Below, one piece after another: positions 9,234 to 32,090 of a DNA stretch of 64,000 nt; within the stretch, counting starts at the first letter, position 1; each line of letters begins with the position of its first letter. The position numbers were made by a program, and so were the translations under genes. Origin of the DNA: Schmidtea nova. Lineage: Eukaryota. A model generated the notes under the pieces. That model saw only the letters and a program-made list of their open reading frames with translations, was not told the DNA's origin and did not search any database. The stretch spans positions 313,472,001 to 313,536,000 of the forward strand of contig CM097883.1 of assembly GCA_044892505.1 (NCBI GenBank). The letters run 5' to 3'.

Positions 9234-9326
9234 TCTCTACAATAATATATACATTCGACTTGTCATTTATTTTTTGATTTTTCTTGTTTTTATTTTTACA
9301 TATTTACAGTTTTCCGCTTTATTTAT

Positions 9327-9683
9327 CTATGGCTCATTCGTTGAATCTGGTTCCGCTTCGTTGTTTAATCTATTTATTACCCAACTCATCCATCCTTCTT
9401 CGGATCCTTCTCTTTCTCCTCGTGTTAAATGGTTTATTTCTATTGCTTGTCTTTGATTGGTGTTGCTTATCGTTTGATTTTCTCTGGTGAGTTCAGTTAT
9501 CACTCTTTGTTGTTCCTCTATTCTGTGTAATTGTTCGAAACAATTATTATAACTCTCTGATAATAACATTTGTCTTTCCGCTAATTGGTTCTGTAATGAG
9601 TTGACTGTTCGTACTAATAAATCACATTGTGCCTTCCATCTCATAGCCATAGTTATTTCAGTGGTTTCGTCCTGTTCGGTCAT
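9327..9683 (-). CDS. 118-aa coiled-coil accessory protein
   Basis: ATG-initiated ORF with a heptad pattern, same orientation and same start context as its neighbours. Confidence 0.6.
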   Translation of the reverse strand: MTEQDETTEITMAMRWKAQCDLLVRTVNSLQNQLAERQMLLSESYNNCFEQLHRIEEQQRVITELTRENQTISNTNQRQAIEINHLTRGEREGSEEGWMSWVINRLNNEAEPDSTNEP

Positions 9684-9807
9684 TTCTAAATTATATACAT
9701 CATTTACTTTGTTTTTCTAGCTTTTTACAATTTTTATAATATCGATACCCATACTATTACGGTAATGCTTTGTTATTTACACTATTATTTACAGTCATAA
9801 TCCGCCC

Positions 9808-12800: not shown

Positions 12801-15800
12801 CGTTTGTGGCAACTCTTGCTTCAGGCCTCTCTATTGTAATTCGTAGGGTTGGTGTTGTTTGCTTATCTGTTGCCTGGGGTTTTTTGTTTTCTGTTCCCTG
12901 TGTCTCTGTCCTTCCACATTTTCCGATGATGTAATCTCCTTTGGGTGACTGTTGTATTGCCATGGCTGCTTTAGGTGTTTGGTATTTTGCACATGCGATT
13001 GTGTTGTGTGATCTTGGATGCTTTTGTTTTCTAACGGTGCATATTTTGTACCAGGTATCTAGATCTAAGTCATTTATCTCTATGATTTCTTGCTCGTGTT
13101 TTGAGATTCTGCAATCCATCGGGCTATTTTGTTCCGTGATTTTGTCCTTTTTTGACCAACATACTCGTTCGATTCCTTTTGCGTTTTTTATTTGTATTAT
13201 TGCCCTTTCTTCACATGTCATTCCTTGACTTGGATTAATTAACGTTAAAATCACTGTTAATAATAGTAATTCTGGTTTGAAGAATGGTTTTATGGTTGAT
13301 TTATAACCTGTTCTTTGGGTGTCATTTTTATCTCCTTGGTCGTTTTTTCCTTGTTCTCCCTCTTCATCTCTTTGTTTTTCGTCTTCATTTTTCTTTTCTT
13401 CCTTGTCTCGTTTCTTGTCTTTTCTCTCGTTTTCCTCTTTATCGGGTGGTTCGTGATCGTTTGAATTTTCTGAGTTGTTACCGTCGTCACTATCTGTATT
13501 GTCATCTCCCCCTGGCTCGTCGAAAATGTCGTCCTCGACATTGATTTCTTCTATTAGTTTCGCATACGCTAATGTCGTTAGATTACTTGCCTCAAACTCT
13601 TGTGTTCCTACCTGTTCTGGTATTACTTTGTTAGTGGATTTATATTCTAAGATTTCCTTTTTGGCCTTGATCCAATTGTTGATGTATGTCTTCATCAACT
13701 CTTTCCATTTGCCTGTGTACTTTTCTTCCTTCGGGCTGGTTGTGATCCTTAAATCCTTTCTTTCCATAAACATCTTCAATATCTCTGGCCATTTATACGT
13801 TATTAAGGCACTTCTTATGCACCAATTTTGGTTATGTTCTGTAAACTCATTAATCCTGAATGCTGGTTCGTTAGTATTCGGATTTATCCACGTAAGTATT
13901 GCTTCTGTTAGTTCGACATTATGCATCATTGTTAGTACACTGGTTTTCCTGACCGTATCAGTTAGGTAATCTATTTCTTCCTGATTTGAGATTGTTTTAA
14001 TGAAGTTGACCATTTCCCAATTATGTGTTAGTAATGCTACATCCAGAATTGAATTATCTTTATCTGTCTTTCCTGTAAGTCCTGCACCTGCTTTGTATAG
14101 TTCTTCCAACACTTTTGTTTTCGTTTTGGCCCTTGCTGCAAATATCATGAGTGTATCTCCTTTCTCGTCTACCATATTCATGTTGCTTCCGCAGTTTAGC
14201 ATTATTCGTGCAATTTCCATTACTTTTCTATCTTTGCCATTTCGTAAAGCTCTATGTATGGGCATTATTCCGTCCTTTGGTAGTAAAAATGTTACTGGCA
14301 TCTCCTTTTTTATAGTCGTTATATCGTTACCATTGTATGTTCCTTTTGCGTATGCGTGTACTTTTTCAACTAAGGCACCGAGTATTTCTAATGCGTGTTG
14401 ACAATTCTCGAATTCCGGTAGCAACTCCTTTGCTTTTTCTTGTATCGCATCTAGTCTAGCTTGGTATGGTGCTTCTGCTTTGAAGAGTGGTGTGAGTTTC
14501 TTGTTACTTTCTCTTTCTTTTCTCTCCAAAACCTGTTTGCATTTTTCGGGGTGGTTTAGGGTTTTTACTAGTTCTTCATACTCATTTACTATCGTCTGGT
14601 ATTTCTCGTTAAAATTGTTTATGTCTTTGTATGTTATTAGTTTATCCAGCGGTTTCGCACACCATTTCCTAATCTTGTTGAATAAGGCTTCCTTCTCTTT
14701 ATCAAATTTGTGTTCCTCTTCATTCTTTGTGATGTATATGTTTCCTCTGTCCAGTAAGGTTAGTAATGTCTTTGGATCGCAAATAAATTTCAAAAGGTAT
14801 CTTAACAACGCGTTTTGTCCTTCGCTGTATACTTCGTTTATGTCTAAGACCCATGTATCCTCTTCTGGTCGTTTCCATTCGATTAACTTACGGATCGTAT
14901 TACATTTGCCAATTTTGATTGCCTCTTTGATAAGGTCTCCTTTTATTAATTCGTCTATTTCCCACGTGGAGTTTGCTATTATATATTCCAACATAAGTTG
15001 GTGAGAACTCCATATCGCGTGATTTAGCACTGTTTTATCTTCTCTATCTCGTTCTGTCCAACTGAAACGGACTTTTATCAACAGATCTACCATTTCTTTA
15101 TCTGCTTGGTAGATGGCTGCTGTCATTAATGGAGTTTCCTGTTCACGATTCCCAACGTCTAGGTTTTGGTTTGTTTCTTTTGCGATTTTCAAGAATTCTT
15201 TTGCTCTTTCAATGTTTTTACACTGAATCGCATTATGTAAGGCTGGTTGTCCTCCTACATCTTTTAATAAGAGTATTTCAGGGATTTTTATCAATAATTC
15301 AGAAATAATTGGTTCGGTTGGTAATCCTTGTGCGTAACGGCTAATTATGTGTCTAATGTCCCTTGATATGCCTGCTTCGTCTCTAACATGCCATCTTCCC
15401 ATTATCTCTCTCGCCTTCAATAGGATTTCTTTATTTCTGATTTCTTTTTGCCTTATTTCTGTTTTGTCGTCTTCACTGGTGTTTGCTCTGAGCATGTTTA
15501 TCCTGGCTGTTTGTGATCTGGTTATTATTCGATTCTCTGGTGTTGTAGTTATCGTTTTAGGCACCTTCTTACATCTGCAGGTGTTTACATATATGGGTCG
15601 TATTAATGGTCGGTTTATTAGCTTAACTTTGGCATTATTGTCCTTTTTGTATATAATTTCATAAGGTCCTCTTCCAGGTCTTTGGAGTTTCTTAACCGTT
15701 CCTGGTATTATTTCGGGAGTTTCTATTATCACCCAATCTCCTGGTTTTAGATCGTTCGCTTTAACATTTTTCTTCTGGTCGTGTAGGTCCTTATAACTTT

Positions 15801-18800
15801 CCTGATAAAATTTAATGTTAAGTTCTGCCGTTTTCCATATTTCCTGCATTCTTTCTTTGAATTTGGTTACGTAGTCGTCATCTTCCATATATTGCGATAA
15901 TGGTGGCTGGTACTCCAAATCTATGGGCATGTTGCATTCTCTGCCATACATAAGTTGAAACGGGCTTAGTTTTGTTGCGGCATGTATCGACATTCGGTAT
16001 GCCATTAAACATAATTTTATGTATTCGTCCCAATCAGTTTGGTGTCTGCTGACATAGTTTGATAACATTCTAATCAATGTGCCATTGAATCGCTCTGTTT
16101 GACCATTCGTTTGTGGATGATATGGTGAAGTTCTCAATTTCGCTATTCTGAAATAGTTTGTCACCTCGTTCAATAACTCACTCATAAAATTAGTTCCTTG
16201 GTCTGTGAGTATTTGTTTTGGAGTTCCATATCTGCAGCATATTTCTTCCACTAGAATTTTTGCTACGGTTTTTGCTTTTTGATCTTGCATGGCAAATGCT
16301 TCCGGGAATTTCGTCAAGTAATCCGTTATTACTAGTATGTAAATGTTTCCGTTTAAGCTTTCTGGTAATGGTCCTATTACGTCCATTGCTATAGTTGTCA
16401 TTGGCTCTGCTGGTATCGGCATTGGTTGTAGCGGGTTCTTCCATTTCTTACCACTATCCTTTCTAGTTGCGCAGGTTAGGCAATTTTTAATCCATTCTTT
16501 TATATCTTCTTCCATTGTTCGCCAATAATATTTCTGTCTCATCCGATTTATTGTCTTTTTCTCTGACATATGACCTCCTAATTTCCCATCGTGGTATTGG
16601 ATCATTATCTCTTTCCTTCTGTTTTCCGGTAAACACATCAGCCTCTTTTCACCGTCTTGTATCAATAACCATCCTTTATTTATTATATATCGATGTTGAT
16701 ATTTTCCTATATGTTCCTTTAATTCTTTATTATCTTTGAATACCTCCATATTTCGAGATGTTAGGAACTCTATGATCTGTCCTAACTCTCTGTCTTCCTG
16801 TTGATCTTTCTTTAACTCACTAAAATCTAAATCCTCTGCTATTAATACACAAATTCGTTGTACATCCGGGTCGGTTAATTCCGGAAATGTCAGTCTGGAC
16901 ATACAGTCTGCATTCGCATTCGCTCGTCCTGATTTAAATTTTATGTCTGGTGAGTACTCCTGTAGCTGCATTGCCCATCGCATTAATCTACTGGAGGTTT
17001 CCTTATGTTGTCCTAACCACACAAGCGGTTGGTGATCTGTGGTTATACAGATGATGTGTCCCCATAATAAATATTTAAAGTGTTTAATTGCTAGTATAAT
17101 TGCTAACGCTTCTCGCTCGGTTACTGAGTAATTTTTCTCATGCTTTTTGAATGTCCGGCTATAATATCCGATTACGCGTTCTTTTCCTTCATCGTCGTAT
17201 TGCCCTAATACTGCTCCTGCTGCATATCCGCTTGCATCCGTTGCAAGTAGGAATGGCTTCTTGAAGTCTGGGTGTACCAATATAGGTGCGGTTATCAGTT
17301 TATCTCTCAATGTTTCAAAGGCTGTTTGCTGTTCATCTCCCCATATGAATGATACATCTTTCTTTACCAGCTCCTGTATAGGTTTTGCTATTCCGGCGTA
17401 ATCTTTTATAAACTTTCTATAATATCCACATAGTCCAAGAAACTCTTGTATCTGGGTTATTGTTTTTGGTACTGGGCATTCTTTTACCTTGTCGATATTT
17501 CTAGGATCCGGTTCTTTTCCTTTTGCTGACACTATATGTCCTAAAAATGTAACCTTTTCTTTTGCCCAATCGCATTTTGATGGCTTGAGTTTTAACTTCC
17601 ATTGTCTAAGCCTAACGAATACATCTCGAATATCCTGTATGTGTTGTTCAAACGTGCTAGAATAAATTAATAAGTCGTCTATGTAGACCATACACTGCTT
17701 TATTCCATGGGTGACGAAATTCATGCATCTCTGAAATGATGCTGGTGCGTTCGTTAATCCAAATGGCATTTTCCGAAATTGATATAAATCTCTCCCGATG
17801 GTAAAGGCAGTTTTCTCTTTATCTTCTTCTTTCATTTTTATTTGCCAATATCCGCTTTTTAGATCTAACGATGTAAAATATGCTGCTCCTTGTAGTGTTA
17901 GTAGCATTTCGTTGATGTCCGGTAATGGGTACGTATCTCGTTTGGTCACCGTATTCAACCTTCGATAATCTATACAGAATCTCTGTGTTCCATCTTTCTT
18001 CTTTACCATTACCACTGGAAATTGCCAGGGTGAACAACTTGGTTCGATTACTTCTGCATCCAACATTTTCTTCACTTCTGCTTCCGCTACTGCTTTCTGT
18101 GCTTCTGCTAATTTGTATGGTCTTAATGCAATTGGTGTTTCGTCGGTTAATGGTATCGTATGTAACGTGACATCACATGTTCCTAGATCTAAATCGGATG
18201 CTGCAAATATATCCTTATACTCCATCAAAAGTTTTTCTAACTGCTTCCTTTGATCTTTATTTAGTAGTTCACTATCAATATTCCAGGTTGGTTCTTTATC
18301 TTTCTCTGCTCCTTCTATTGGTAGTTCGATATCCATCATTGGGGTTAATTTACCTAATCTTTCGTTTTCGTATATTATTTTGTCCTCTTCATCGAAGTTT
18401 ACTACGTTTATTGGGATTTCTCCATCATCGTTTATGTTAACTAGTCCTCTTGCCATTGGCAACGCTTTTCTTTTCTCGAATCTCTTACTTGGTTCGAAAA
18501 TCATATCCCCTTGGATTGTCGGATCTATTTTTACGTAACATATTTTCTCCTTTCTTGCGGGTATTATCATTTGCTTTGAACTTGTCACTTTGGCTTCTAT
18601 CGCGCATATTTGTCCTGTGCGATCCTTTAGTCTCATTGTTCCGAGGTCGATTACAATCTCTTTAAATAATGCTGGCATCAAATCTGTTCCGATGATGCAA
18701 GGTACGCTTAATGCTGGTATAACTGCTACGTATGTATCGATTTCCGTGTTTAAGTGGCGTATTTTTACCCACCATCTTCCTGCTACTTCTACAACTTCTT

Positions 18801-20601
18801 TGCTACATGCAATTACATGGACGTTTGTCCTTTCTATATCTCGTCTTTGCTCTTGTGGTATCCATTTGATGTCGATGGCGGAAATGTTTGCTCCAGTGTC
18901 GATCATTGCTTCGATTTCTCTTCCGTTAATTTCTATTGTCGTGGTTAGTACTGGACCTGTGTTTGATGACATTACTGCGATCGTGTGTGTATCTCCTTGT
19001 GGATCTACGCTTCTACATCTTCTCATTTTATAGTCTTCTGGTATCATGGGGTATACATTTGTCATTGGCATCATTTGCATCGTGCTATTTTTTCCTCCTT
19101 GTAGTGGTTCTTGATACATTGTTGGTGGAGGTGCGTAACATTTCCATGCGTCGGCTGGATTCTTTTCGATGTATTGTGGTGCTTGGTTCTTATACACTTG
19201 TCCTCCCTTATAGTCATCATCGTCATCGTCGTCGTCACTTGAATCATTTTGGGTTTTATATCCTTTCATCCTCTCCCATAGTCCTTTTCTTTCTCTCTTG
19301 AGCTGTTGTCTTGCTTGTTCGTCATTCATTATCTTTTTAAATTTTCGTCCTACTTCTTCATCTGTTCCCTTCATTTTTGCTAATATCTTTAGGAGTCTTT
19401 TTATTCGGTGGATATCTTTTGAGTGACCGTGTAACACCATCGTTTTCGCAAGGAATGGTAAAAATCCTACTACCATTTTCCAATTTACTTTCTTTTCTCT
19501 CTTGTAGATGTCAAAACACGCGAGCATTTGCGTTATTATCACTCTGATGATTTGTATTATTAATATGACCCCTAGTATTCCGGCCATCATTTGTCCGAAT
19601 ATCAAAAATCTTCCCCACATTGCTTTCATCATATTTTCGGTGGCTTTCTTGAAATGTGCTGGTGACAACAACAGTTCATAATTCGGTCCTTCTCGATAAT
19701 TCGTTCCTCCCGTTATCGTTACGATATTTGACAGTAATGCTTCTCTTCTTGCCGGGAATAATATATTCTGCCTTGCCGCTTCTAGATCCTTTGGACTATA
19801 TATTCCGTTGTTTGAGACATCTACGTCGCTAAATTGCCTATCCTTTGACAATTGCATTAATTCGAACTCTCTTGGTGCTATCACTTCGGATCTTCCTGGG
19901 AACATAACCCATTTACCATCTGGTTTCTGATAAAGCGGTCCATACGCATTACTACAGTTGAATGGATTTGGTTCAAACCCTGGTGGATTGATGATTCTCG
20001 TCACTGGTTGAACGTATCGTACTTTTCCTTTGTAATCGATTTCTAACTCATTTGTACAGGTTCCAGGTTTCAACTGCGTTGTTGCTGCTAGCGATGCGTG
20101 TGTCTTTTCGCAAATGTATACATACATTGCTTCTCCAACCACTCTTCCGAAATGTCCTTCTCTCAGTGGTAATAATGGCATCGCGCTATCTGGATTCGTA
20201 ATTGCTACGGCCAACTTTGTCTTTAATATTTCTCGATTCAGTATACAATCATTGTTTATCAGATCGTAGTACACTTTTTGTAATGAGGCTTGTCCTCTAT
20301 GGAATAGGAAATCCATTTTATTATTCACATATAGGTGTAGTTTGATATCCATTGTGTCGATTTTGGGTTTCGCATTTGGCACTTCTTGTTTTGACACATA
20401 TATTCCTGGATAATTCGTTTCGTATACCGTTGTACTACACTTAAGGGTTGCTTTCCCTTTTATGAACCTCATTCCCACATCCTGATTTGTGGTTATCAAC
20501 ACTGTTGGTGTGGCTCTCATCTCTATCCGTTTTTCTCTATGATCCGGTTTCAGTTGTCTCCAAAGCTTCCTTGAGATGCTTTGCTCTAGCTTTGTCGTCA
20601 T
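9808..20601 (-). CDS. pol: Polyprotein 3' part: glycoprotein C-half with TM, then PR, RT, RNase H, integrase, ankyrin repeats and two FN3-like membrane modules
   Basis: Protease MIDTGANIS (~18895); RT FCIDYRRLN and VYIDDLL (~17680); RNase H LATDASG (~17235); IN H-x6-H...CLTC, DVIGPL, TDQGTNF, ERFN, GPY (~15665). Ankyrin motifs PALHNAI, TPLMTAA, PIHRAL. Confidence 0.95.
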   Translation of the reverse strand: MTTKLEQSISRKLWRQLKPDHREKRIEMRATPTVLITTNQDVGMRFIKGKATLKCSTTVYETNYPGIYVSKQEVPNAKPKIDTMDIKLHLYVNNKMDFLFHRGQASLQKVYYDLINNDCILNREILKTKLAVAITNPDSAMPLLPLREGHFGRVVGEAMYVYICEKTHASLAATTQLKPGTCTNELEIDYKGKVRYVQPVTRIINPPGFEPNPFNCSNAYGPLYQKPDGKWVMFPGRSEVIAPREFELMQLSKDRQFSDVDVSNNGIYSPKDLEAARQNILFPARREALLSNIVTITGGTNYREGPNYELLLSPAHFKKATENMMKAMWGRFLIFGQMMAGILGVILIIQIIRVIITQMLACFDIYKREKKVNWKMVVGFLPFLAKTMVLHGHSKDIHRIKRLLKILAKMKGTDEEVGRKFKKIMNDEQARQQLKRERKGLWERMKGYKTQNDSSDDDDDDDDYKGGQVYKNQAPQYIEKNPADAWKCYAPPPTMYQEPLQGGKNSTMQMMPMTNVYPMIPEDYKMRRCRSVDPQGDTHTIAVMSSNTGPVLTTTIEINGREIEAMIDTGANISAIDIKWIPQEQRRDIERTNVHVIACSKEVVEVAGRWWVKIRHLNTEIDTYVAVIPALSVPCIIGTDLMPALFKEIVIDLGTMRLKDRTGQICAIEAKVTSSKQMIIPARKEKICYVKIDPTIQGDMIFEPSKRFEKRKALPMARGLVNINDDGEIPINVVNFDEEDKIIYENERLGKLTPMMDIELPIEGAEKDKEPTWNIDSELLNKDQRKQLEKLLMEYKDIFAASDLDLGTCDVTLHTIPLTDETPIALRPYKLAEAQKAVAEAEVKKMLDAEVIEPSCSPWQFPVVMVKKKDGTQRFCIDYRRLNTVTKRDTYPLPDINEMLLTLQGAAYFTSLDLKSGYWQIKMKEEDKEKTAFTIGRDLYQFRKMPFGLTNAPASFQRCMNFVTHGIKQCMVYIDDLLIYSSTFEQHIQDIRDVFVRLRQWKLKLKPSKCDWAKEKVTFLGHIVSAKGKEPDPRNIDKVKECPVPKTITQIQEFLGLCGYYRKFIKDYAGIAKPIQELVKKDVSFIWGDEQQTAFETLRDKLITAPILVHPDFKKPFLLATDASGYAAGAVLGQYDDEGKERVIGYYSRTFKKHEKNYSVTEREALAIILAIKHFKYLLWGHIICITTDHQPLVWLGQHKETSSRLMRWAMQLQEYSPDIKFKSGRANANADCMSRLTFPELTDPDVQRICVLIAEDLDFSELKKDQQEDRELGQIIEFLTSRNMEVFKDNKELKEHIGKYQHRYIINKGWLLIQDGEKRLMCLPENRRKEIMIQYHDGKLGGHMSEKKTINRMRQKYYWRTMEEDIKEWIKNCLTCATRKDSGKKWKNPLQPMPIPAEPMTTIAMDVIGPLPESLNGNIYILVITDYLTKFPEAFAMQDQKAKTVAKILVEEICCRYGTPKQILTDQGTNFMSELLNEVTNYFRIAKLRTSPYHPQTNGQTERFNGTLIRMLSNYVSRHQTDWDEYIKLCLMAYRMSIHAATKLSPFQLMYGRECNMPIDLEYQPPLSQYMEDDDYVTKFKERMQEIWKTAELNIKFYQESYKDLHDQKKNVKANDLKPGDWVIIETPEIIPGTVKKLQRPGRGPYEIIYKKDNNAKVKLINRPLIRPIYVNTCRCKKVPKTITTTPENRIITRSQTARINMLRANTSEDDKTEIRQKEIRNKEILLKAREIMGRWHVRDEAGISRDIRHIISRYAQGLPTEPIISELLIKIPEILLLKDVGGQPALHNAIQCKNIERAKEFLKIAKETNQNLDVGNREQETPLMTAAIYQADKEMVDLLIKVRFSWTERDREDKTVLNHAIWSSHQLMLEYIIANSTWEIDELIKGDLIKEAIKIGKCNTIRKLIEWKRPEEDTWVLDINEVYSEGQNALLRYLLKFICDPKTLLTLLDRGNIYITKNEEEHKFDKEKEALFNKIRKWCAKPLDKLITYKDINNFNEKYQTIVNEYEELVKTLNHPEKCKQVLERKERESNKKLTPLFKAEAPYQARLDAIQEKAKELLPEFENCQHALEILGALVEKVHAYAKGTYNGNDITTIKKEMPVTFLLPKDGIMPIHRALRNGKDRKVMEIARIMLNCGSNMNMVDEKGDTLMIFAARAKTKTKVLEELYKAGAGLTGKTDKDNSILDVALLTHNWEMVNFIKTISNQEEIDYLTDTVRKTSVLTMMHNVELTEAILTWINPNTNEPAFRINEFTEHNQNWCIRSALITYKWPEILKMFMERKDLRITTSPKEEKYTGKWKELMKTYINNWIKAKKEILEYKSTNKVIPEQVGTQEFEASNLTTLAYAKLIEEINVEDDIFDEPGGDDNTDSDDGNNSENSNDHEPPDKEENERKDKKRDKEEKKNEDEKQRDEEGEQGKNDQGDKNDTQRTGYKSTIKPFFKPELLLLTVILTLINPSQGMTCEERAIIQIKNAKGIERVCWSKKDKITEQNSPMDCRISKHEQEIIEINDLDLDTWYKICTVRKQKHPRSHNTIACAKYQTPKAAMAIQQSPKGDYIIGKCGRTETQGTENKKPQATDKQTTPTLRITIERPEARVATNETERVSYQMEVLCLALILIMIKRLEEGIEIETMTITEIEDTQNTNIKCWARNNEEIGVNEIRKSRKPTTNKVIKISEVKADKTYKLCLLEKETNKKGTTKCKTFQPGEVIKFRRRTRKRNKQIKRKVNITLEIKEIEPNVKGVCWRKYEKEVNKRTTPQCRTNTGTTTIQIKGLESKQTYEICLVKKNDQITVNDLECGIYTTSSGTRTKTLTRKNKRKQQNKGKPKYTTTFKNNKQPTNQEVTTKSERKTSATLTLWKIENKTLEICWIIVQKHIRRQSRECRKTNKEIKIEKLQFNSEYEVCAIEKMDALGNQQERCETYYTPANATSKGVARKIEFKELSQTNEQMDAEKTIIDPQAKWTPEEVIKEVKRKQEEREQLMRKLKGQYGIMFNQSESIQTDENKEIKELIGLGILTATIPVIIALSAIWIRKINPRKSATQWPNIDSTSHGVEILEENAREEPKPTRNKKEAKIAKLGMNNKDKEIKEIKGEEKKYERRTRSLPQSSKWLGLTIILTLINREEAINPQTGIKIINVQEVEKICWYREDEPIGENNPLKCIIRKPDQDIIRIEEMDGGTMYRICIIEKEKKSGLPKTVVCQKYETPRLEWYRVKPTKKEIKNTIDQPATQIRNTTDKPGEGERSINNTREGASPEQDVVCIALIIAMSKRINKGITIEQMAMTIRRKGRSSNKICWGWYNEQKEYQVQTSDESRTNKETEIQEIQMDGEGSICIWEKGIQEDQPGIEKCKTFQKGEILKLDEEELTKTERTLTLTGLDQTVKGICWTKHNPEGEEGNLTHCKETGNKEKVELKKMEVNRTYAICTFTRKGSEKPECGLYQISEKLQQQIEPGNMKNRTKENNVKQLLNRHWSTQEVMNKVKSQIQKEKKPEAQTQNEIKANRNKIKATNRGKTIIGLMSIGILIAYGILTTSIIVYWRYRKRNKATAIQWPDIKIMKLGIEIPEEIQKEFQRRTKGKEFWKQIEDEERYEEKTIMMV

Positions 20602-22843
20602 CGTCTTCTTCCTGGAATGTCTTTCCTTGAATTTCGTCGAACTGTGCTCCTTGTAGCAGTTGTAGTTGACATTCGTTCACCTTTGGTTTGTATACTAATG
20701 TTGACATTCCCGTTTGACACATGCTCCTGTCGATTTTACACATGGATAACGTTTTCATTTCCCCCGTTGTTGGTTCGAAGAATGCTTCGTAGCTTTTTAG
20801 TTCGACTATATACGTATCTATCACCACTAAGTTGGTTGCGAGTGTTCCGAACATCGGGTAGGTTTCTCCTTGACAATATCCTTCTCCTCCCGTAATCCGT
20901 CCTGCTACATAGTACGTCTGTTGCATCATCATTCCTGGCTTTCCTTTTATCTTGATTTTATCTCTTGTTGTTACTTCTCCATGTTTAAACAGTGCTTCGC
21001 AGTCCTCTCCTTGTAACACGATTGGTTCTCTTTCCGTTCCTGGCATGACAATTGCTGAATAATGTCCTCTCCCGCAGTAGAATGCGAATCTCGTCTTCTG
21101 CACCTTACATTCATTCACCATTGTCTTTATGAGTTCTGCTTCTTGATACACGTGGTACCATTGTTCCTTTTTAATCTTTTGCAACTCTACTGGAGTTGCA
21201 TCTTTGCATTGCTCCGTGCCTCTCAATGAATACTTTTCTCCTAACTTCATTTGGTCGCAATCAAACACTTCGAACGCTGTTGCGCTATCGGTGCTAATCA
21301 TCCATATCAACATCATCATTATTATGGAACTCAAATTCATTGATGACTTCGCGTTTCTTGTTCCTGCTTGTTCTTTTCCTAACTCTTCCAATATTTTTTC
21401 GAATTTCTTTTTCATATTCTTGGCTTGTGTTTTCTTCTGGTTAGCTTTTATAAATGTTTCCCATCCGCCTTTGTTAATGACGTAGGGTTCTATTTCTTTA
21501 GATATAATCTTTGCGGTATTTTTTATGTGTCTTTCCAACGCAGTGGGTTTTGGTCGACCTCTACTCAGTGTTAGTAGGTTGTAGATAGTGTATGCAATGG
21601 CTATTACGTATTTGTTATCTGTTTCCGCTCCTTCTGTCAATTTCTTTATTAACGTAGTGGTTCCTTGCCAGTCTAAATGATTTGACTTCGTCTTTTCTTT
21701 TATGAATTCCGGTAAGGTGGGTGCAATTGCGCTGTGCAATGACTTCGCCTTTTCGCTTATCTCAGTTATGCGCCAGTATTTTTTCAATTCCGGATCAATT
21801 ATTGCCAATATTTCCATTATTGTTTTCGATATCCATTCCTCACCTTGACATATTGGTGTTGTCTCTTTTTCTTTTATCTCCGCGATTTTATTTAATTTCT
21901 TTAAACATACTTCCCATTGATCTTGTCTCTTTTCATCCTTATTTCTGATGACTACATTTGCCGGATCTGTCTTGGGTCTACCTCGAGGTCGTCTATCCAT
22001 TCCTGTACCCGTTTCCACAAATCTTGTTGCTCGTCCGGTTTCTTCCGTAACATCTCTTGGTTCGTTAGCTCTTTCTTCCAACCATCTTTCCATTTCTTGT
22101 GTTAATCGTACATTTTCGACATTCGCTCCTCTTGTTTCGTCTTCCGTCAAATCGTTTACTTCTTCTATTATTATCTCTTCTTCAACTTCTGTTTCTCCGG
22201 TGTTGGTTACTTGTACTGTCGTAGGTAATTCTTGTATTCTTTCGAAAATGTTATCGTCTTTTTCCTTTGTTAGTTCGGTTAATTCTTCTATCATATCGTC
22301 GCTGTCTGTTAAAATTTCGTCCACGTCGTATGGTTGTGGTGGAGTCATTTCTCTATTCCCTCTGGGTGTTGTCTCAGATCGTCTTGAACTTGTCCCTGGC
22401 GTTGGTACTAATTCCATCGGGCTCGGCGTACTTATACTTCCGTGTGGTTTATGGTTTTCTTCTTTACGTTTTAATGGTTGACCTGCTATTGCTTCTACTG
22501 TCAAGGTATTCATGAGATCTAGTTGTGCTGGCGTTATTCCGATTTCCAAACTGTTATCTAATGATCGTCCTTGGTGTTGTAAATGGAATGGTGGTTCGTA
22601 TCTCAATTTCTTTTTAATATCTCGAATTTTTTCTGCTATTCCTACCCACAATTCTTCCTTATCCTTGTTTGGATATATTATTCTTAAATGCACTTTTTGT
22701 GGAATTTCCTGCGAGAATTCTTGATTTCTCCATTTCCTAATTACGTGGTCTAGTTGTTCCGGGCACCACTCGTTAACTCTTTTATATTCTGCGATTGCCT
22801 TTGCCACTTTACGCAAGCATGTTATATCTTCTCCATTAACCAC
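20537..22843 (-). CDS. Polyprotein middle part: ubiquitin-like domain, Bcl-2-like domain, internal signal peptide and glycoprotein N-half
   Basis: HLQHQGRSLDNS resembles ubiquitin RLIFAGKQLEDG. IEPYVINKGGWETF resembles BH2. The hydrophobic stretch SIIMMMLIWMIST is followed by AFEVFDC and a Cys-rich ectodomain. Confidence 0.8.
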   Translation of the reverse strand: MVNGEDITCLRKVAKAIAEYKRVNEWCPEQLDHVIRKWRNQEFSQEIPQKVHLRIIYPNKDKEELWVGIAEKIRDIKKKLRYEPPFHLQHQGRSLDNSLEIGITPAQLDLMNTLTVEAIAGQPLKRKEENHKPHGSISTPSPMELVPTPGTSSRRSETTPRGNREMTPPQPYDVDEILTDSDDMIEELTELTKEKDDNIFERIQELPTTVQVTNTGETEVEEEIIIEEVNDLTEDETRGANVENVRLTQEMERWLEERANEPRDVTEETGRATRFVETGTGMDRRPRGRPKTDPANVVIRNKDEKRQDQWEVCLKKLNKIAEIKEKETTPICQGEEWISKTIMEILAIIDPELKKYWRITEISEKAKSLHSAIAPTLPEFIKEKTKSNHLDWQGTTTLIKKLTEGAETDNKYVIAIAYTIYNLLTLSRGRPKPTALERHIKNTAKIISKEIEPYVINKGGWETFIKANQKKTQAKNMKKKFEKILEELGKEQAGTRNAKSSMNLSSIIMMMLIWMISTDSATAFEVFDCDQMKLGEKYSLRGTEQCKDATPVELQKIKKEQWYHVYQEAELIKTMVNECKVQKTRFAFYCGRGHYSAIVMPGTEREPIVLQGEDCEALFKHGEVTTRDKIKIKGKPGMMMQQTYYVAGRITGGEGYCQGETYPMFGTLATNLVVIDTYIVELKSYEAFFEPTTGEMKTLSMCKIDRSMCQTGMSTLVYKPKVNECQLQLLQGAQFDEIQGKTFQEEDDDDKARAKHLKEALETTETGS

Positions 22844-23190
22844 GAAAAAATCTGCGAGACCTTTTATTATTTTCTCTTACCGTGCGCATTAGTTTTTAAT
22901 ATTTCGACAAATTCTTCCGTTTTTTGCTTTTCCTTTTCTACCCATATAGCCGCTGTTTCTGGTCCATCTAGGTCTATTGGCGTAGCTTTCCTTGTCACCA
23001 TGCAAACCCTTCTCATTTCTGGTTCGCAGTCATCTTCCATTCCTCTTTCATATTCTTCTTCATATTCTCCTTCCTTTGGTACCCAACATTTTTCTTTCTC
23101 GTTCCATTGTTTTTCTACGGGTGTTCGTCTTCGTCTGTTGAGATTGAGTTCCTCTAATACATTTTCCCACTCTGGCCAAATTCGCCAATT

Positions 23191-26100
23191 TCAATAGATG
23201 TCTACTATTTGTTGTAATTTGCGCACAACTTCTTTCCGTCGTTCCCGTTCTCTTTTCTCATCTTTAGCAGTTTCTCTGGGTGTATCGTCCATTCTGATAA
23301 CGTGGATGGTTTGGTGATTATCCCATATACCGATTTTATATAGTCGTCTCTCATCGTGATCCCATAATACATGTTCGTTATATTGTATGATTATGTCGTC
23401 TTCCCATTCGTCTTCTGGTTCTCTTTGCACTAGTGTCTCGTTGATGACATTTATTGATTCTTTAATGGTGCAATCCGCTACTACTTCAATTTCTTTGGTG
23501 TCTTCGTTAGGCAATTCCACTGAAATTTTTAGATCTGTTATTTTCCCTTGTCTGAACATTGTTTTTCCCATTTTTGCGATTAATTTGTCGTGTGAGATTT
23601 GTGACCATCTCGTGTGACTTGTGTCACGTATACACTCAATACATTGTTTCAATTTCTCGTATTCGCTTCTCATTAACTCCTTTCTATGTTTTTTGACTTG
23701 TGGTATGATTTGTTCTATCAGGGAATTTAGATTCTTTCGTAAGACTCGTTCTTTCTCGTATTCTAACCGAGGTTTTATTCTCCTTTCAAAGCACGTGTTT
23801 GCTTCCCTTGCAACTTCTTGTAGGTTCTCTTCTTCCTTCTCATCACATATTGATAACAGAGTTATTTCTCCTGGCCATATACCTGTTTCTACTAAGTGCG
23901 TTCTTTTCTTTACGAGTCTATTCTGCGAATAGATGAATTTGTTTTTATATGAGCTCCCTAGTCTATCCTCTACCCATCTGTAGATATCGTCTGTAAATGG
24001 AGTTTTGATCCAGATTCTTGGTGTAGATGTATTTATTATTATTGAGATGGTGTAATTGAGGAGTGGTTCCTCTATCAATTTCCCTACGTATCGATTTAAC
24101 ATGTCCACTTCCCGGTCTTGTAACCATTCTCTGTAGTTCATTTGTAATAATGCTTTCATGAATTTCCGATATTGTTTCTTGTCCATGAATTCTTCGTTAT
24201 ATATTACTTCTAGCGAGTTATCTAGTAATTTCTGGATTTCATCTACTTTTATCTGTGTAGGTTCTGAGGTCTTTATTACTTCTCTCTCTTTATTTTCGTC
24301 TTCGGATTCGTTTAATATGTCTCCTGCTAGGCTACTGATGTCGCTATCTTCTTCCTCATCGGAAAATTCTCTGGCGGTATTTCTTAACATATTAATATGT
24401 GCTATTTGGTTCGTTTCTCCTTGTATATTCTTCGTTGGTTCTGGTTCGTTTTTGTCAATCTCTGGTGTTGGTTCACTCTTGTCCTCTATTACTTCGACTT
24501 TTCTCATTTTCTTCTCCAACTCGTCTATCTCTTTCAAACGTCTTCTTATCATTTTTCCTTTAAATATTCGACTGATTCGGGTTTCGTGACGCACTGGTGG
24601 TGGAATTTCTCCTGGTTCTATTTCTTTGATTCTCATCACATTTCTTTTTGTCTCTGTTACTCCCATGTTTTCCCATATATCCGTTAATTTCAATTTTACT
24701 GATGGTGCATCTCTTATTTGTAAGAACGCTTCTCTGGGCAGTTTCGTTACTCCTGGAATCATCTGGTTTACTTTATTGAATAGTATTTCCACCTTTTCTT
24801 TTGCGTTATATTGGAATCGAAACACATGGTCGTTGGGCATGATTATCATCATTCCTTTTTTCCAAATTTTTCTTCTCTCTTCTTGGTTTATCTCAGTTTC
24901 CGCTTCCTTTTCTACTTCTTTTTCTACTTCCTCATCTTTTTGTACTATTTCTTTTCCACTTTCGTTGTCGGCTGGATTCATTTCTAGTGTGGTTTCTTTT
25001 TCGCGAGTATCTGTTTGGTTTATTGCTCTTAGCATGTTGATTCTTAGAGGTTGTCGCTCTCTTTCTTGTTGTTTTTGTTCGTCTTCTCTTTGTATTCTTG
25101 CCCATTCCTGAGCGTGTCGTGCTTGACTTTCTCGATTCAATCGTTCGTTTTCGCTTTCTATTTTTCTCATCATGCTAATTTGTTGTTGGTTGGTTTGCGG
25201 ATTCCCTCTCGTCGTATTGTTTATAAGTTCCGTCAACCGTTGAACTTCTTGCATCAAATGTATTTCTTTGGTGGTAGTTTTGTTCTGATTATTGTTATTA
25301 TTGGCTTGTTGGTTTCCATAATCTTGTCGATTTACGGTATTTGCTTGGTTTCCGTAATTTGGTCGGTTTCCGTTGTTCTGCCAATTTCCTCGTTGATTAC
25401 CTTTTTGTCCGCAATTCCTTGAGTAGTGACCAGGTCGTCCGCAATTAAAACAGATTATCGTAGAACATCTACTCTCCGAGTGTCCTTTAACTCCACATTT
25501 TCCGCAATTCAAATTTTGATAGCATTCTTGCTGCCAATGTCCCAATTTTCCACATGTTTTACATTGTTTTGTTTGTCTTTGAGGGTTGTAATTGTTTTGG
25601 CTTTCAAAGTTCTGCACTTTATTTCCTTCATTCCTTCGTTGAGGGGGTGGTCGGTTTAATTGTTGCGAATTTGGAATGTGATTGTTAAGATTTACTTCTG
25701 GTTCGATTTGCGCCGTGTCCATGGCTAAATAAATTCTACCCTCACTTCCTATCATATGCAATTCAAATCGGTTAGCTGTTTCTAACGCTTGATCTATGGT
25801 TTTGCATCCTTGGCATCCAACTTGCGCTCTTATGTCGGGTCTTCTTAATCCTCCTATGAAGATGGCTGCCATTAATTCCTCGTTTATTGGACCCCCATCC
25901 TTGAATACCGATTTTGCTAATTTTTTCAGTTCGCTTGCGTATACCGCATTAGATTCATTCATCTTTTGTTTCCTCATTGAGAATTCTATGAATGCCTCGC
26001 TTAGCACTTTATTTATTCCAAATGTTTGTTGAAAAAAATCCTTTATCGCTGGCCAGTCTGCAGGTGGATTGGTACCATTCTTTGCTTCCAAATATAGGTC

Positions 26101-26706
26101 CAATGCACTATCTTTCAAATATAACTGTATTCTACTTGCTGTTGTCTCAGCTTTCCATTTGCATACTTCCACGAATATGCCAAATTCTTTTAGAAAAATT
26201 TCCAATTTACTCGCATCTCCGTTAAACGGTTCTCCTGAAAATTTATCCTTTATTTCTTCTCTTGGTTCACCCATTTCAATTCCGCTGTCTTGAGTTATTT
26301 TACTTTCGTTCCCTCTTGTTTCTAGTTCGTTGTTATGTTCGTCTTCTGTTTTACTCGAGCTTGAATCGCTTTCTGTTTCTCTTATTACTTCGCTATCTGA
26401 TATTATACTTTCGTTATCACTCTCGTTGGTTTCAACCTCTGGTTCTACCTCGTTTTCTACTTCTTCGATATTATCGTTGTTAATTTCGTCGCTTTCTATT
26501 TCGCTTGTTTGGTTCTCCTTGGGTTCTGCTTGGTTTTCTTTGTTACTTGAGCTGTTGCTTACTACTGACAATTTATCGTTTTCGATAATTGATTTATCTC
26601 TTATTATTTTCCTCGCTTTACTCCCTTGTGGGTTTTTGTGGTTATCTTTGCCGGCTTTCTGCTTTTTTGTTGGCTTTATTGCGACACTCTTTGCTCCTTT
26701 TCTCAA
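23191..26706 (-). CDS. gag: Polyprotein 5' part: Gag (capsid plus three CCHC knuckles) with a ~600-aa extension containing two ubiquitin-like domains
   Basis: Capsid-like FSGEPFNGDASKLEIFLKEF and RKQKMNES; CKTCGKLGHWQQEC, CGKCGVKGHSESRC, CFNCGRPGHYSRNC. The frame stays open for ~105 codons beyond the TGA at 23191. Confidence 0.92.
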   Translation of the reverse strand: MRKGAKSVAIKPTKKQKAGKDNHKNPQGSKARKIIRDKSIIENDKLSVVSNSSSNKENQAEPKENQTSEIESDEINNDNIEEVENEVEPEVETNESDNESIISDSEVIRETESDSSSSKTEDEHNNELETRGNESKITQDSGIEMGEPREEIKDKFSGEPFNGDASKLEIFLKEFGIFVEVCKWKAETTASRIQLYLKDSALDLYLEAKNGTNPPADWPAIKDFFQQTFGINKVLSEAFIEFSMRKQKMNESNAVYASELKKLAKSVFKDGGPINEELMAAIFIGGLRRPDIRAQVGCQGCKTIDQALETANRFELHMIGSEGRIYLAMDTAQIEPEVNLNNHIPNSQQLNRPPPQRRNEGNKVQNFESQNNYNPQRQTKQCKTCGKLGHWQQECYQNLNCGKCGVKGHSESRCSTIICFNCGRPGHYSRNCGQKGNQRGNWQNNGNRPNYGNQANTVNRQDYGNQQANNNNNQNKTTTKEIHLMQEVQRLTELINNTTRGNPQTNQQQISMMRKIESENERLNRESQARHAQEWARIQREDEQKQQERERQPLRINMLRAINQTDTREKETTLEMNPADNESGKEIVQKDEEVEKEVEKEAETEINQEERRKIWKKGMMIIMPNDHVFRFQYNAKEKVEILFNKVNQMIPGVTKLPREAFLQIRDAPSVKLKLTDIWENMGVTETKRNVMRIKEIEPGEIPPPVRHETRISRIFKGKMIRRRLKEIDELEKKMRKVEVIEDKSEPTPEIDKNEPEPTKNIQGETNQIAHINMLRNTAREFSDEEEDSDISSLAGDILNESEDENKEREVIKTSEPTQIKVDEIQKLLDNSLEVIYNEEFMDKKQYRKFMKALLQMNYREWLQDREVDMLNRYVGKLIEEPLLNYTISIIINTSTPRIWIKTPFTDDIYRWVEDRLGSSYKNKFIYSQNRLVKKRTHLVETGIWPGEITLLSICDEKEEENLQEVAREANTCFERRIKPRLEYEKERVLRKNLNSLIEQIIPQVKKHRKELMRSEYEKLKQCIECIRDTSHTRWSQISHDKLIAKMGKTMFRQGKITDLKISVELPNEDTKEIEVVADCTIKESINVINETLVQREPEDEWEDDIIIQYNEHVLWDHDERRLYKIGIWDNHQTIHVIRMDDTPRETAKDEKRERERRKEVVRKLQQIVDIY

Positions 26707-27316
26707 CTGGATTACTTTTATATTATCAATTTTCTTGTCCTATCTATTATCGTTTTTCTGATTCTTCTTGTTGCTTGATTGATTTGATTGATTTGTATAT
26801 CTAAAATACAAAGGTCCTCAACGATACCTTATTGTTATCGTCGCGCTTTTATTCCCTTTCTTTCGGGATTACTTATTACTGGGTTTTCATTATATCCCCA
26901 TTCCCAGATTCCCCTTTATTTTTAGTCTATTTAAATTATCTATAGACTGGTCACAATTATCTATTTATGTCGTAATAATTATCTATGTTTTATCAAATCC
27001 ATTACTTTTCCCACAGTTTCCCAATTTATTGGTCGCTCGAGCGCTCTAATTCCCTGAGTCTTTCTGACTCGTTTATCATTATTTTATCATTCCTATTCAT
27101 TATTCCCTGATAGCAATCGTTTTACTCATTCTGCCGGTTGCTCCGGTCAGCTCGAATTTTTATTATTCTCCTTGCATGCTTTACTTAAGGTTGCATAATC
27201 AGCTTTACTCGCATTTCTTAACTACTAGTGCGCACTATTCTAAATCTCGTCGACGATTACACTATGGGTCTATATTCCCTCTGTTACTATTTATCCGGAT
27301 ATCTCTATAATCCACT

Positions 27317-27628
27317 ATGGCTCTTTTGGCCTCAATTTTATATCTCACATGGCTCTATTGGCCTCATTTTACTATCTCAAATGGCTCTATTGGCCTCAAT
27401 TTAATATCTCACATGGCTCTATTGGCCTTAATTTAATATCTCACATGGCTCTATTGGCCTTAATTTTATATCTCACATGGCTCTATTGGCCTCATTTTAC
27501 TATCTCAAATGGCTCTATTGGCCTCAATTTAATATCTCACATGGCTCTATTGGCCTTAATTTAATATCTCACATGGCTCTATTGGCCTTAATTTAATATC
27601 TCACTGGCTCTATTGGCCTCAAATTAAT
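27317..27628. repeat. Tandem array of ten ~32-bp units (ATGGCTCTATTGGCCTCAATTTAATATCTCAC) upstream of gag
   Basis: Unit starts at about 27317, 27349, 27381 and so on to 27604. Variant pattern shows a 128-bp higher-order duplication. Confidence 0.95.
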
Positions 27629-28220
27629 CTCTCCATAACGCCTAGCTAGGTCATTCAATAAGGCTCGTTGGCCTCAACCCTTTTTTTCAAGGGACAAACC
27701 GCTGATAACCCTTTGTTTCAAGGGACAAATCTCGTATAACTTTATAACTTTACTTAACCGGTTAATCACAATTCTTAACTTCGCTAGCGATTAAAATTTC
27801 TCAGCTGAGCTATAACTACTTCTATGCGAGCTGACTATGCACCTTTTATTCTCTCAAAAATGTCATTTATCTCTCTATTCTATCATAACTATTTCCTGAT
27901 CAGTCTGCTTTAACTTTTTATTTTTTTTTTCTTATGCGCGCTTTACTCCATCAAGATTTCCCTATCTCTCTCCCCAACCACAATATACAAAAAGATCGCG
28001 TTGGTCCATTAGTGCAGGATGTGGTGATCAATCACATCACAAAAACTTTCCAACATTTGCGATGGGCCCCTTTCTATATACTTGACTAGGTTGATCAATT
28101 GGTACCCCTCAATGGATTCTTATCGGACTACTTTGTAGTAGCTCAAAAAAATTATTTAAATACAATGATTGTTCCCATGATTCACCATTCGACATTTTAC
28201 TAATTAACTCTAAACATTTA

Positions 28221-28682
28221 TTACAAATAAACTATAATTTTTTCATTCACGGTAAAGTTGCACATCGGACACCGGTCACACTTGTTGGCACAGATCTTAC
28301 AAAAACGGAAATGTCCACAAGGTAAAAACATAATTTGTATCTCGTTGTTTTCACATATATAGCACTGTCGGTATTTTTTCGCTGCTTCTACCCCTTGCGC
28401 CCTCCATCGATTGTATGCTGGGGTCAATTGTTGTTCCATCTGTCTGCATCTAATGTTCAGCTCCGCATTCTCTAGTCGTGCTTGGTACCATTTGTAGCGG
28501 GTTTTTATGTCGATTTTACTTGTTCTTTCTGTTATCTTTATTAATTCATCTGTTTCTTCGGTCTGTGTTGTGGGTTCTTGAAATTCAATTTCTCTAAATC
28601 GGTTTATTTTCTTGCCAATTGTTGCTAATGTTTCGTTTTCTGTGCTGAGAAATTCTTCGATTTCTTTCAGTTTTTCCTCCAT
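28221..28682 (-). CDS. 153-aa protein with a C-terminal IAP/Mdm2-type RING finger, between the PBS and gag
   Basis: CYICENNEIQIMFLPCGHFRFCKICANKCDRCPMCNFTVNEKIIVYL at the extreme C-terminus, the hallmark layout of IAP-type RINGs. No BIR domain. Confidence 0.85.
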   Translation of the reverse strand: MEEKLKEIEEFLSTENETLATIGKKINRFREIEFQEPTTQTEETDELIKITERTSKIDIKTRYKWYQARLENAELNIRCRQMEQQLTPAYNRWRAQGVEAAKKYRQCYICENNEIQIMFLPCGHFRFCKICANKCDRCPMCNFTVNEKIIVYL

Positions 28683-29037
28683 TTGCTGAATAAATAATCG
28701 TTTTAACTTTGTGGTTTTTATCGTTTTAAAGTGGTAATATGTCTCGTTTTGTGTCTTTTAATATTTATTTAAAGTAGTAATATGTTTCGTTTTGCATCTT
28801 TTAGCATTTATTTACTCTCCCCGTGTTTCCGAAAATTGTCGTCCCGACAAATTATTTATGCATGCATTCGATTTTTATAACTTTACTTTTATTTGTTGTT
28901 GTGTTTGTTGTTTATCTTGTACATCATTTAGATTTAATTACCAATTTTCTGTTTTTATTAAATTTATTCACACGACACGAGCACTTTAAACTTCTCTGCA
29001 GATTTTTCATTCACATTTTACCGATAAAACGAAGTTG

Positions 29038-29055
29038 ATCCCGGCTGAGCCCCCA
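29038..29055 (-). promoter_or_regulatory. Primer-binding site, tRNA-Pro type
   Basis: TGGGGGCTCAGCCGGGAT, 6 nt inside the 5' LTR; two differences from the classic MLV Pro PBS TGGGGGCTCGTCCGGGAT. Confidence 0.9.
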
Positions 29056-29061
29056 AATTTA

Positions 29062-32000
29062 TGCTGGGTTCATGGACGGTTTGGTGAAAATTCGAATGAT
29101 TGCTAGGGATCTCCCATCCATGATCATGCATAAATAGTCGTAAGCTACACTCGAGCGCCCTTGATTATTTCCCCTGATAACCAAGTTGGTGATGCGCAGG
29201 GTGATTAAACAATGAGGGGCAGGTGAGCACTATTGCTAGGACTACTCCCCCTTTATGTTTACGGGTTCACGCGGCCGTAGAAGGACTTACGCAATTATTG
29301 TTCTATTTTGTGTGTGTGAGGCTATGTATTTATCAAAAAACAAAACAAGCAAGCAAAACCAAACTACGAATTTGATAATATTTAAGTTCTTTATCGCTAC
29401 TCCTTTCGTTGTGTGCCGGGTAATTGAAATTTAATTATGAATTATCTAATCGAAGGAAATACAAAAGAAACAACAACAACAAAACAAAAACGAGCAAAGA
29501 TTTAATTGACTCCCAAATCGGACATCGTATTCTATCTGTTATAGAAATTCTTTGAAAATTCCTTCTGGAGGGAATATCTCGGATAACCACTCGGCCTCCG
29601 ACATTTCTGCCATAGTGGTTACTTGTGTCTGCAATTGTTGAGAAAACAACTTTCTTTGGCGACGGCGCTTGGAGCCGATTCGTTTCCGCTTATTCGTTTT
29701 TCCGACGGGGTTTGGTATAGTGGTGGTTTCCACCCGACTCTGCACTGTGGTTGCCTCGAGTCCATCGGTGTCCGTACTGATTGAGCAGGCCATTTTCTGT
29801 TCCCCTACCCAATTCTGGTAAGTAATGGGTCGGATTTGTGCTTTCAATTCGGTCTCGATAAATGAAGTCGTCACCGAATGGAGACATCGGCGCAACTCAA
29901 TTTTTGTTGCTTCCCATTCGGTGCGATAATCGTCAGCTGTCTTTTGAGCCCTTTCTGTCCGACTCATTTGCTCCTTCATGCGAGCTGGTGCGAACCAGCT
30001 GGTCCGTAAATGCTGAATCTGAGCTTCTGCTTTGGCTCGTAAGGCTTTTTCTTGGTTTAGCTCTTTTTCCAATGCTCGGCGGATTCTCCACGCCTTGTCC
30101 AATTCTCGCTGCTGGCTAGTTTCCGTCATACTAAATAACAAACCCAATTTATAATGCATCAAACATGTTACCAAGATTAATATTATCCGTTGAGTGTAAA
30201 AATCATATGATTAAATAAATAGAAATAAATTTAACTAAGAACAAACAAAACACGGATCAACACCATTTAATTTATTGAAATCGTTTAGTTTATAAAATGT
30301 GAATATAATGTTTAGTGGAAAACACTTCGCTTGAGGCCGTGAACGGGAGTAATATGCAACCCGTGATTGACTGGATTTCTTCGGATGTGAGCCATCGAAC
30401 AGTTTAGTTTGGGGCGTCCGTGGCACGTTTTCGGTAGGTGATTTGGAATCAACCCGAAATTAAGCAACCTGAGCGGTGAGACATATCCCCAATGGATCAC
30501 TGTCGTTGGATTTCCTTCACTGTCTGACACCACTATGATGAACAGAGCTGTCGTCTCCCGGTCTCTTTCGTCCTGAATTTCCCATCCGGGGCCTCCTCGA
30601 TATACGATGGTATCCAATCCACCGGCCCAAATCGAAAATGGGCATTTCTTTCCTAGTTCCCTTCTCCATTTATACATCAACGCATTTAGCGTTCTGAGGA
30701 GTTCCTGTGGAAGCGACTTCAATTTCTTCCGGTGCGTCCGGATTAGAGGATTTTCGACCCGTGCCACATGACGTTGAGTTGTTAGAAATTCATCCAGTAT
30801 CGTTGATTTCATCTGAGAAAACAATAATGCTAATAGAATTTACTGTGATAAATCCGTAAATTTTGGTGAGACCTGATAAAAAGTGCTCTGCTCGTTGATC
30901 AATAACACAAAAAAAATGTGAAAAGGAGGAAAAAAAATATTTTTCAAACTATTCAATTAACACCGTCGCTATGTACAGCGATCGGAATATTAAAAATTTA
31001 CCTATTATTACCTGCGCTATGTACAGCGATCAGGTTACGATTTTATTTATTTAATCAGTAGTGTCGATCTGAATATGTCGTTATTTATGTCTAAATTAAA
31101 CTGTAGTTGAAACGTCGAAATCGTCTCGGTGTGTCTGGACGTGATTTCGATCAGCTATGTTGGTTCACAAAAATTTGCGTGCATATGAAAAAAATCGATC
31201 TAGTCGACCTGATAATTGATATTATAGTTTGTTTTCGCCTGTCTGATCGAATGTAAATGTTAACCACTGTCTACAAATTTTACTCGTGTCCTTGTCCCTG
31301 CACAACTTTACCGTACCGTGAAGCTTCCGATAAAATAAAATTAAATAAAGAATACCAATAAAAACTCTGCTCACCATCTTGTGGAACGGTGAAATCCCAC
31401 ATTTACGGCTTGCTCCCTCGCAGCGTAAGCTACTGAGGAAGTATATTTATTAGATCATAAAATAATGGCATAAGAAAAATAGAGTAATAGTAATAAATTA
31501 TATTAAATGAAAATAAAACAAATGGGAATCATGAAACATATCATAAAAATCAATGCAAAATACAATACAAAAAAATTTACTGTTTAAATCCACGATGCAG
31601 TGTTTTCCAAAAATTTACACAGTCTTTATCGTATCAAAGTTGACTATGATAAATCAGTTCGGTAGCTAAGTTTTTTGGCGTTTTTTTGTATGATTTTTGG
31701 ATCGGTATTTATACTGATCCAGTTGGTCAGATTGACCAATCAGGATCAGGCCGTCCATCAAAGTAATTTTGTTATTTTATTTTAATATAAACCATTTTAA
31801 ATTTCCGGTTCAGATTTCTCGCTGGGTGGTCTCGATTTTTTCAAGTAATTAACCAATTAATTGTACTTTTATTTGATTTTATTGGTAATTTTCTTATTTC
31901 AGACCCCCATACTGCTCGTTCTTGTGTCAATTTGATTTTCTTCCTTTGCTGGAAATTTAGTAATTATTATTTATTATTTTATTTTAATTTTTAATTTAGG

Positions 32001-32090
32001 TTTTCGAATGTTTTTGTGGTTATTATTTGTATTTATTGTTCAAATTAGTACAATATTTTTGCCTTTTTAGACCAATTGGTGGGCCCAACA
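29062..32090 (-). repeat. 5' LTR of the giant element (3029 bp)
   Basis: Direct repeat of 2794-5822, adjacent to the PBS. Confidence 0.97.

Follow-up and report, generated by a model that had tools for sequence, protein, structure and literature searches.

The window analyzed here, a 64,000-nt stretch of the Schmidtea nova genome, harbors a giant Ty3/gypsy LTR element on its reverse strand, together with the remains of a decayed sister element (Table 1). The perfect identity of the two 3,029-nt LTRs and the 4-nt target duplication mark the giant element as a young insertion. The window copy is broken: a stop interrupts it near 23190, and the frame shifts near 22870 and again within the 20537-20676 overlap, where env is split. 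A natural copy (G000:C1:168324243-168341165) has a single 5,641-aa frame in the order gag, Bcl-2-like, signal, env, pol, in which Gag takes up residues 1-1182, the Bcl-2-like domain 1604-1778, the short hydrophobic segment 1803-1813, and the env transmembrane segment 2387-2405, followed by Pol. Among 1,125 candidate copies in the 1.25-Gb genome, 150 were scored, all 93-100% identical to the domain, and in 33 of these 150 a frame of at least 5,600 aa holds it. The original prediction had described a Bcl-2-like domain fused ahead of a glycoprotein; this stands to the extent that the PF24664 match begins in the same ORF (at residue 519 of ORF 20537-22876, E 2e-19, running on in the next frame), but the unit is a polyprotein of ~5,650 aa and not a two-domain gene.

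Table 1. Parts of the giant element and of its decayed sister, in window coordinates
Feature	Position	Strand	Remarks
Giant Ty3/gypsy LTR element, Burro type	2794..32090	-	29,297 nt; 4-nt target-site duplication
5′ LTR	29062..32090	-	3,029 nt; identical to 3′ LTR
5′ accessory ORF, IAP-type RING finger	28221..28757	-	PF13920, E 4e-11
Gag part of polyprotein, CCHC knuckles	23191..26739	-	closed by stop in window copy
779-aa open stretch: acidic linker, Bcl-2-like domain, signal, env start	20537..22876	-	frame changes at both ends
Bcl-2-like helical domain	21422..21859	-	model residues 25-170; ~145 residues
BH1-equivalent position	21611..21622	-	alignment: NWGR replaced, Arg position still basic
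BH2-like motif with GGW at its end	21449..21496	-	residues 461-476 of ORF 20537-22876
Short hydrophobic segment, predicted signal-peptidase site at its end (putative internal env signal)	21275..21346	-	small -3/-1 residues
env, mononegavirus/chuvirus fusion-glycoprotein type, C-terminal transmembrane segment	19501..21274	-	PF24664
Protease, RT, RNase H, integrase	16114..18942	-	frame shared with 3′ part of env
Ankyrin repeats past integrase (top-scoring stretch)	14971..15240	-	PF12796
3′ accessory TRAF-like ORF: RING-like, TRAF zinc fingers, MATH	7875..9236	-	
3′ LTR	2794..5822	-	
Sister element (decayed): Bcl-2-like domain	62028..62416	-	split across two frames; PF00452 13.4 bits, E 0.11
Sister element: signal segment and env pieces	60865..61943	-	

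Several further parts accompany these core modules. The 5′ accessory ORF has the RINGs of cIAP2 and XIAP as its closest PDB matches, and this IAP-type RING is all that was found of an IAP in the window copy of the element, where no BIR appeared at E ≤ 10. Near the end of Gag there is a weak match (8 bits) to a ubiquitin-like segment. A motif drawn post hoc has 10 occurrences within the 5,641-aa frame. Four of them flank the protease, RT/RNase H, and integrase, and these occurrences at the Pol boundaries are candidate protease sites. The end of the polyprotein (9808-13500, reverse strand), past the integrase and ankyrin repeats, consists of two blocks that resemble each other, built of modules with Cys residues and a weak likeness to Fn3 (PF24942, E 0.002); the blocks contain hydrophobic segments, in the manner of type I membrane proteins, and the Burro section of PMC6431247 makes no mention of two such terminal blocks. 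Other accessory ORFs on the same strand (6681-7781, 9327-9716, 3271-3942, and 4044-4571) are coiled-coil or without assignment, two of them lying within an LTR, and a tandem array with a 32-nt period (27285-27668) lies in the 5′ untranslated region.

By its layout, the element belongs with the Burro elements of the Dugesiidae (Burro1/GYPSM1 and Burro-2 to -4), an assignment made from this layout and the published descriptions. Shared features are a length of ~30 kb, one huge polyprotein, a Schmidtea host, the order Gag, ubiquitin-like, BCL2-like, env, pol, and the possession of ankyrin repeats and TRAF/MATH. Differences from the described Burro elements include a longer polyprotein (~5,650 aa in the window family versus 4,873 in S. 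mediterranea and 5,140 in D. tigrina), a TRAF/MATH ORF that stands apart from the polyprotein, on its 3′ side, an IAP-type RING ORF without a detected BIR, and the absence of a dUTPase match in the domain scan. The arrangement of a Bcl-2-like domain followed by env is already published for Burro elements. According to the Burro section of PMC6431247, in which the first notice of the BCL2-like motif is credited to Grohme et al. (2018), a ubiquitin/SUMO-like motif precedes the BCL2-like motif, which is followed by a mononegavirus-like env, and the region from BCL2 to protease constitutes this env, matching mononegavirus fusion glycoproteins and lying in frame between gag and pol (Arkhipova & Yushenova, 2019). 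What the present analysis adds is support from fold, selection, and tree for a maintained Bcl-2 homologue in a family missed by Pfam, together with a model of the topology and a domain delimited to ~145 residues.

The domain was found at the location that had been proposed for it (21440..21830), with a somewhat larger span of ~21422-21859, and the BH2-like motif said to match that of Bcl-xL is indeed present, its GGW kept and the first Trp of the W..GGW pattern being Tyr in the window family. The original prediction was also correct in seeing no canonical NWGR BH1: the motif occurs in 0 of 26 element rows, and at its positions Trp and Gly are each found in a single row, whereas the Arg position is occupied by a basic residue in 24 of 26. 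A BH3 motif could not be discerned in the alignment of the element rows. A counterpart of the BH2-like motif had been reported from the sister element at 61985-62030; it is real and is followed by a PF24664 match (E 1.7e-12), but lies at 62040-62081, ~50 nt away. In common with cellular Bcl-2 proteins (PF00452), such as the product of a host gene 99% identical to Schmidtea mediterranea Bcl2-2, the window domain has a predicted helical bundle, the BH2 GGW, and a downstream hydrophobic segment. It departs from them in having no NWGR and no clear BH3, and in that the hydrophobic segment is farther downstream and runs into env. The decayed sister element additionally contains a DEDDh-type exonuclease-like ORF (59044-60153, reverse strand; RNase_T, E 2e-4).

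Used alone as a query, the domain yields no Pfam match at E ≤ 10, PF00452 included, no Bcl-2 protein among its matches to PDB sequences, and no usable match in the ESM Atlas, and word-based searches recovered no homologue among 920 candidates and solely an input row among 3,172. It is at the level of families that the relationship emerges. A genome scan with PF00452 returned host genes along with many matches inside long element frames, each readable frame having a signal and env start downstream of the match. Positional homologues from two sister families (L040 and L041) score 34.3 and 34.7 bits against a cut-off of 31.4, the sister family represented in the window scores 21-22 bits, and PF00452 matches at E ≤ 0.1 are obtained for 23 of the 26 element rows. 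A profile of 6 sister-family rows, from which the query was excluded, matches ORF residues 351-475 with E 8e-7 among 650 window frames and gives the domain 29.4 bits, as compared to a shuffle maximum of 13.2 (1,997 of 2,000 shuffles scored); with a profile built from 10 host exons, the domain scores 15.5 and the best shuffle 11.2. Searched against 1.84 billion proteins, a 7-row element-only profile found 23, of which 13 are cellular-type Bcl-2, 9 element-like, and 1 ankyrin. A 16-row element-only profile run against the PDB placed Bcl-xL/Bcl-2 in all of the best 60 of 234 matches (Bcl-xL best, E 5e-9), and HHalign aligned the query family with 12 cellular Bcl-2 proteins over 74 columns (87%, E 4e-6).

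Structure prediction followed by a Foldseek comparison, which had been suggested as a check on the proposed domain, was carried out and leads to the same family, with modest scores. The AlphaFold model, computed from 26 element rows with no templates, is all-helical (pLDDT 70.5, pTM 0.61). With this model, Foldseek against the PDB lists Bcl-2 family members in 46 of 46 rows (E 0.02-0.12, TM 0.33-0.52; no row at E ≤ 0.001), and Bcl-2 proteins likewise lead in a viral structure library. An unbiased VIA search ranked KSHV Bcl-2 first of 48,161 (Z 7.6, rmsd 3.8, 121 aligned) and a second look gave A1 as best match (Z 7.9, rmsd 3.3, 121 aligned), both Z scores falling below 8, in a range that, per the tool, may reflect a common helical arrangement. 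Among the best 50 VIA matches, the 15 Bcl-2 rows are the sole ones that align at least 113 residues, and each of the four fold searches made with the 26-row model has a Bcl-2 protein in first place. Since several alignment rows were first found via PF00452, the model is not fully independent of the sequence evidence. A single-sequence AlphaFold model (pLDDT 54), which resembled generic helical bundles only, was set aside as uninformative. The domain is predicted to adopt the Bcl-2 fold, in which bundled helices surround a central hydrophobic hairpin.

In an unrooted tree of 36 of 37 rows (P0018 was left out, and P0008 and P0017 are absent), 15 element domains fall on one side of a branch with support 97/95, apart from the host genes, the branches being long, including that of the query. 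This fits a single old capture, for which the unrooted tree names no host donor. Profile, fold, and tree are in agreement, modest as each fold score is, and the domain is almost certainly homologous to Bcl-2. The designation as a viral-style Bcl-2 mimic holds for the homology, and "captured, diverged Bcl-2 homologue" is the apter term. The genome has at least five element families that combine Bcl-2 and env (L040, L041, L088, L092, and the window family), with recurring open frames of ~5,650, 3,401, 3,070, 2,992, and 2,993 aa. In four metagenome proteins (P0001, P0002, P0009, and P0012), this type of Bcl-2-like domain has Gag or env next to it, and judging from these sequences the element type may extend beyond the Dugesiidae.

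The variants segregating among copies indicate that the domain is under purifying selection. Across the 42 distinct stop-free loci among 49 of the family, shared variants in the domain core number 51 synonymous and 10 non-synonymous (pN/pS 0.05), and in the same loci pN/pS is 0.04 for env and 0.10-0.12 for the region upstream of the domain (p 0.04 versus the domain). In family C, the domain has a pN/pS of 0.22 versus 0.07 for env (19 of 32 loci), and in family B, with 6 of 30 loci usable and most decayed, 2 synonymous and 6 non-synonymous variants were counted and no purifying selection was seen. Purifying selection was found in every region tested and so does not single out the function of the domain.

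How might the domain be placed in the cell? The distance between GGW and the env start motif is 54-82 residues in 12 of 12 elements examined, and behind the intervening hydrophobic segment 10 of the 12 have a signal-peptidase-type site with a small residue at -1. The best 19-residue hydropathy amounts to 1.45 in the window family and 2.49 in the sister element, as compared to 1.59-2.32 in four cellular Bcl-2 tails. The segment resembles an env signal that is cleaved off, and would make a weak tail anchor. The original prediction had suggested that it could serve as both; the deduced topology is oriented as that of a tail anchor, and such dual use would be coherent, but the segment is short here and has a peptidase-like site behind it in most elements.

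We regard it as an even call whether the domain is a pro-survival factor that keeps the host cell alive during element replication. Such a role is favored by the position within one frame, the homology, and the purifying selection described above, by the basic residue retained at the BH1 Arg position, and by the IAP-type RING and TRAF-like ORFs on the same element; the steps by which it would operate we infer as follows. The N-terminal third of the polyprotein would remain cytosolic, and the short hydrophobic segment would enter the ER as an internal env signal. Cleavage by signal peptidase just ahead of env would leave a cytosolic product with the Bcl-2-like domain at its C-terminus, which the signal remnant would hold for a while at least, with env luminal and its transmembrane segment bringing Pol back to the cytosol. 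The domain may then bind BH3 helices of host Bak/Bax-like proteins via a non-canonical groove, as do some viral Bcl-2 proteins devoid of NWGR. Cellular pro-survival proteins depend centrally on the Gly and Arg of BH1 for BH3 binding. Among poxviral Bcl-2 proteins, some do without these two residues when binding BH3, F1L and M11L being NWGR-less examples, and others have shifted to immune signaling. The loss of NWGR speaks against the pro-survival role, as does the fact that a signal inserted into the ER would put the domain away from mitochondria. On the host side, a likely BH3-encoding exon (L147:1050-1148, reverse strand) lies upstream of a Bak/Bax-like exon (L035), ~11 kb away, and we infer that the two belong to the same gene.

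Alternatively, the Bcl-2 fold may have been kept and BH3 binding lost, the domain serving as an adaptor with a dampening effect on innate or TNF/TRAF signaling, in the way that the poxvirus proteins A46, A52, B14, and K7 are Bcl-2-fold signaling adaptors. The loss of NWGR from all 26 rows and the company of TRAF-like, IAP-RING, and ankyrin modules on the element would suit such a role. It is harder to reconcile with the retention of the BH2 GGW and of the BH1 basic residue, and with closest folds that are the BH3 binders A1/Bfl-1, Mcl-1, and KSHV Bcl-2; furthermore, A46, A52, B14, and K7 could not be identified among the named rows of the viral library, some of whose rows are nameless. We hold an adaptor role to be unlikely, if a serious contender.

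The even spacing to the env start motif raises another idea, namely that the domain is an assembly part, a folded cytosolic leader that ties the Gag-side product to the env membrane and has no effect on cell death, analogous to the particle-assembly tether provided by the leader peptide of foamy-virus Env. In its favor, the grouping of element domains on one branch (97/95) means that their position has stayed unchanged ever since a single capture, and the candidate protease motif, which was drawn post hoc and is found at four Pol boundaries, does not occur between residues 1144 and 2589. Yet a tether has no need of a Bcl-2 fold, and the persistence of BH2 across rows only ~20% identical suggests constraints of the family type, which leaves this explanation improbable. 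As for a chance GGW match in an unrelated helical linker, the lack of a direct Pfam or PDB match and the generic bundles of the single-sequence model could be read in its favor, but under three profiles 0 of ~2,000 scored shuffles reach the real score, and Bcl-2 is retrieved by the element-only profile, HHalign, VIA, and Foldseek alike; this explanation is largely refuted, and we consider it very improbable.

Returning to the pro-survival role, the nearest known analogues are the viral Bcl-2 proteins, including KSHV Bcl-2/ORF16, EBV BHRF1, ASFV A179L, adenovirus E1B-19K, and adintovirus Bcl2, which are likewise captures of the Bcl-2 fold and stand at the top of the fold lists. Those homologues are stand-alone genes of DNA viruses; the window domain, unlike them, is embedded in a retroelement polyprotein and has an eroded BH1. 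A second analogue comes from Burro itself. The B-IAP of Burro1, as presented in PMC13465017, is likewise a host-derived cell-death module on a Burro element, a combination of RING and BIR that acts on caspases and is reported to have been functionally tested. The Bcl-2-like domain, by comparison, would act farther upstream. The same source relates that this RING-BIR module protects stem cells (Lee et al., 2026). The Burro1 IAP module reportedly helps regeneration, and PMC8532177 describes Burro1 as PIWI-silenced and expressed upon release. For the present genome, the listing of sequencing runs gave 4, from one study, with no RNA among them. No functional test of the Burro Bcl-2-like domain was found in the literature searched, to which the primary texts of Grohme et al. 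(2018) and Lee et al. (2026) may add.

At its most far-reaching, the pro-survival role would amount to a working, NWGR-less viral Bcl-2 within the Burro polyprotein that is anchored in the membrane by the env signal peptide, such that each round of env synthesis leaves an apoptosis inhibitor on the ER, a module captured once, kept in at least five families of this genome and in metagenome elements, and putatively aiding the survival of planarian stem cells. This combined picture is speculative, and we think it unlikely to hold in full. If true, a second, Bcl-2-type survival module supplied by high-copy elements would bear on the persistence of proviruses in stem cells.

Outside the two Bcl-2-bearing elements, the window contains another gypsy element, of the ordinary kind, which has gag and pol between terminal repeats of 106 nt (34602-39172, forward strand), and a fragment of a proteasome alpha subunit (53792-54196, reverse strand). 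There is also an uninterrupted, plastin-like ORF with four calponin-homology domains (47503-49062, forward strand), part of which is repeated in inverted orientation at 1-355.
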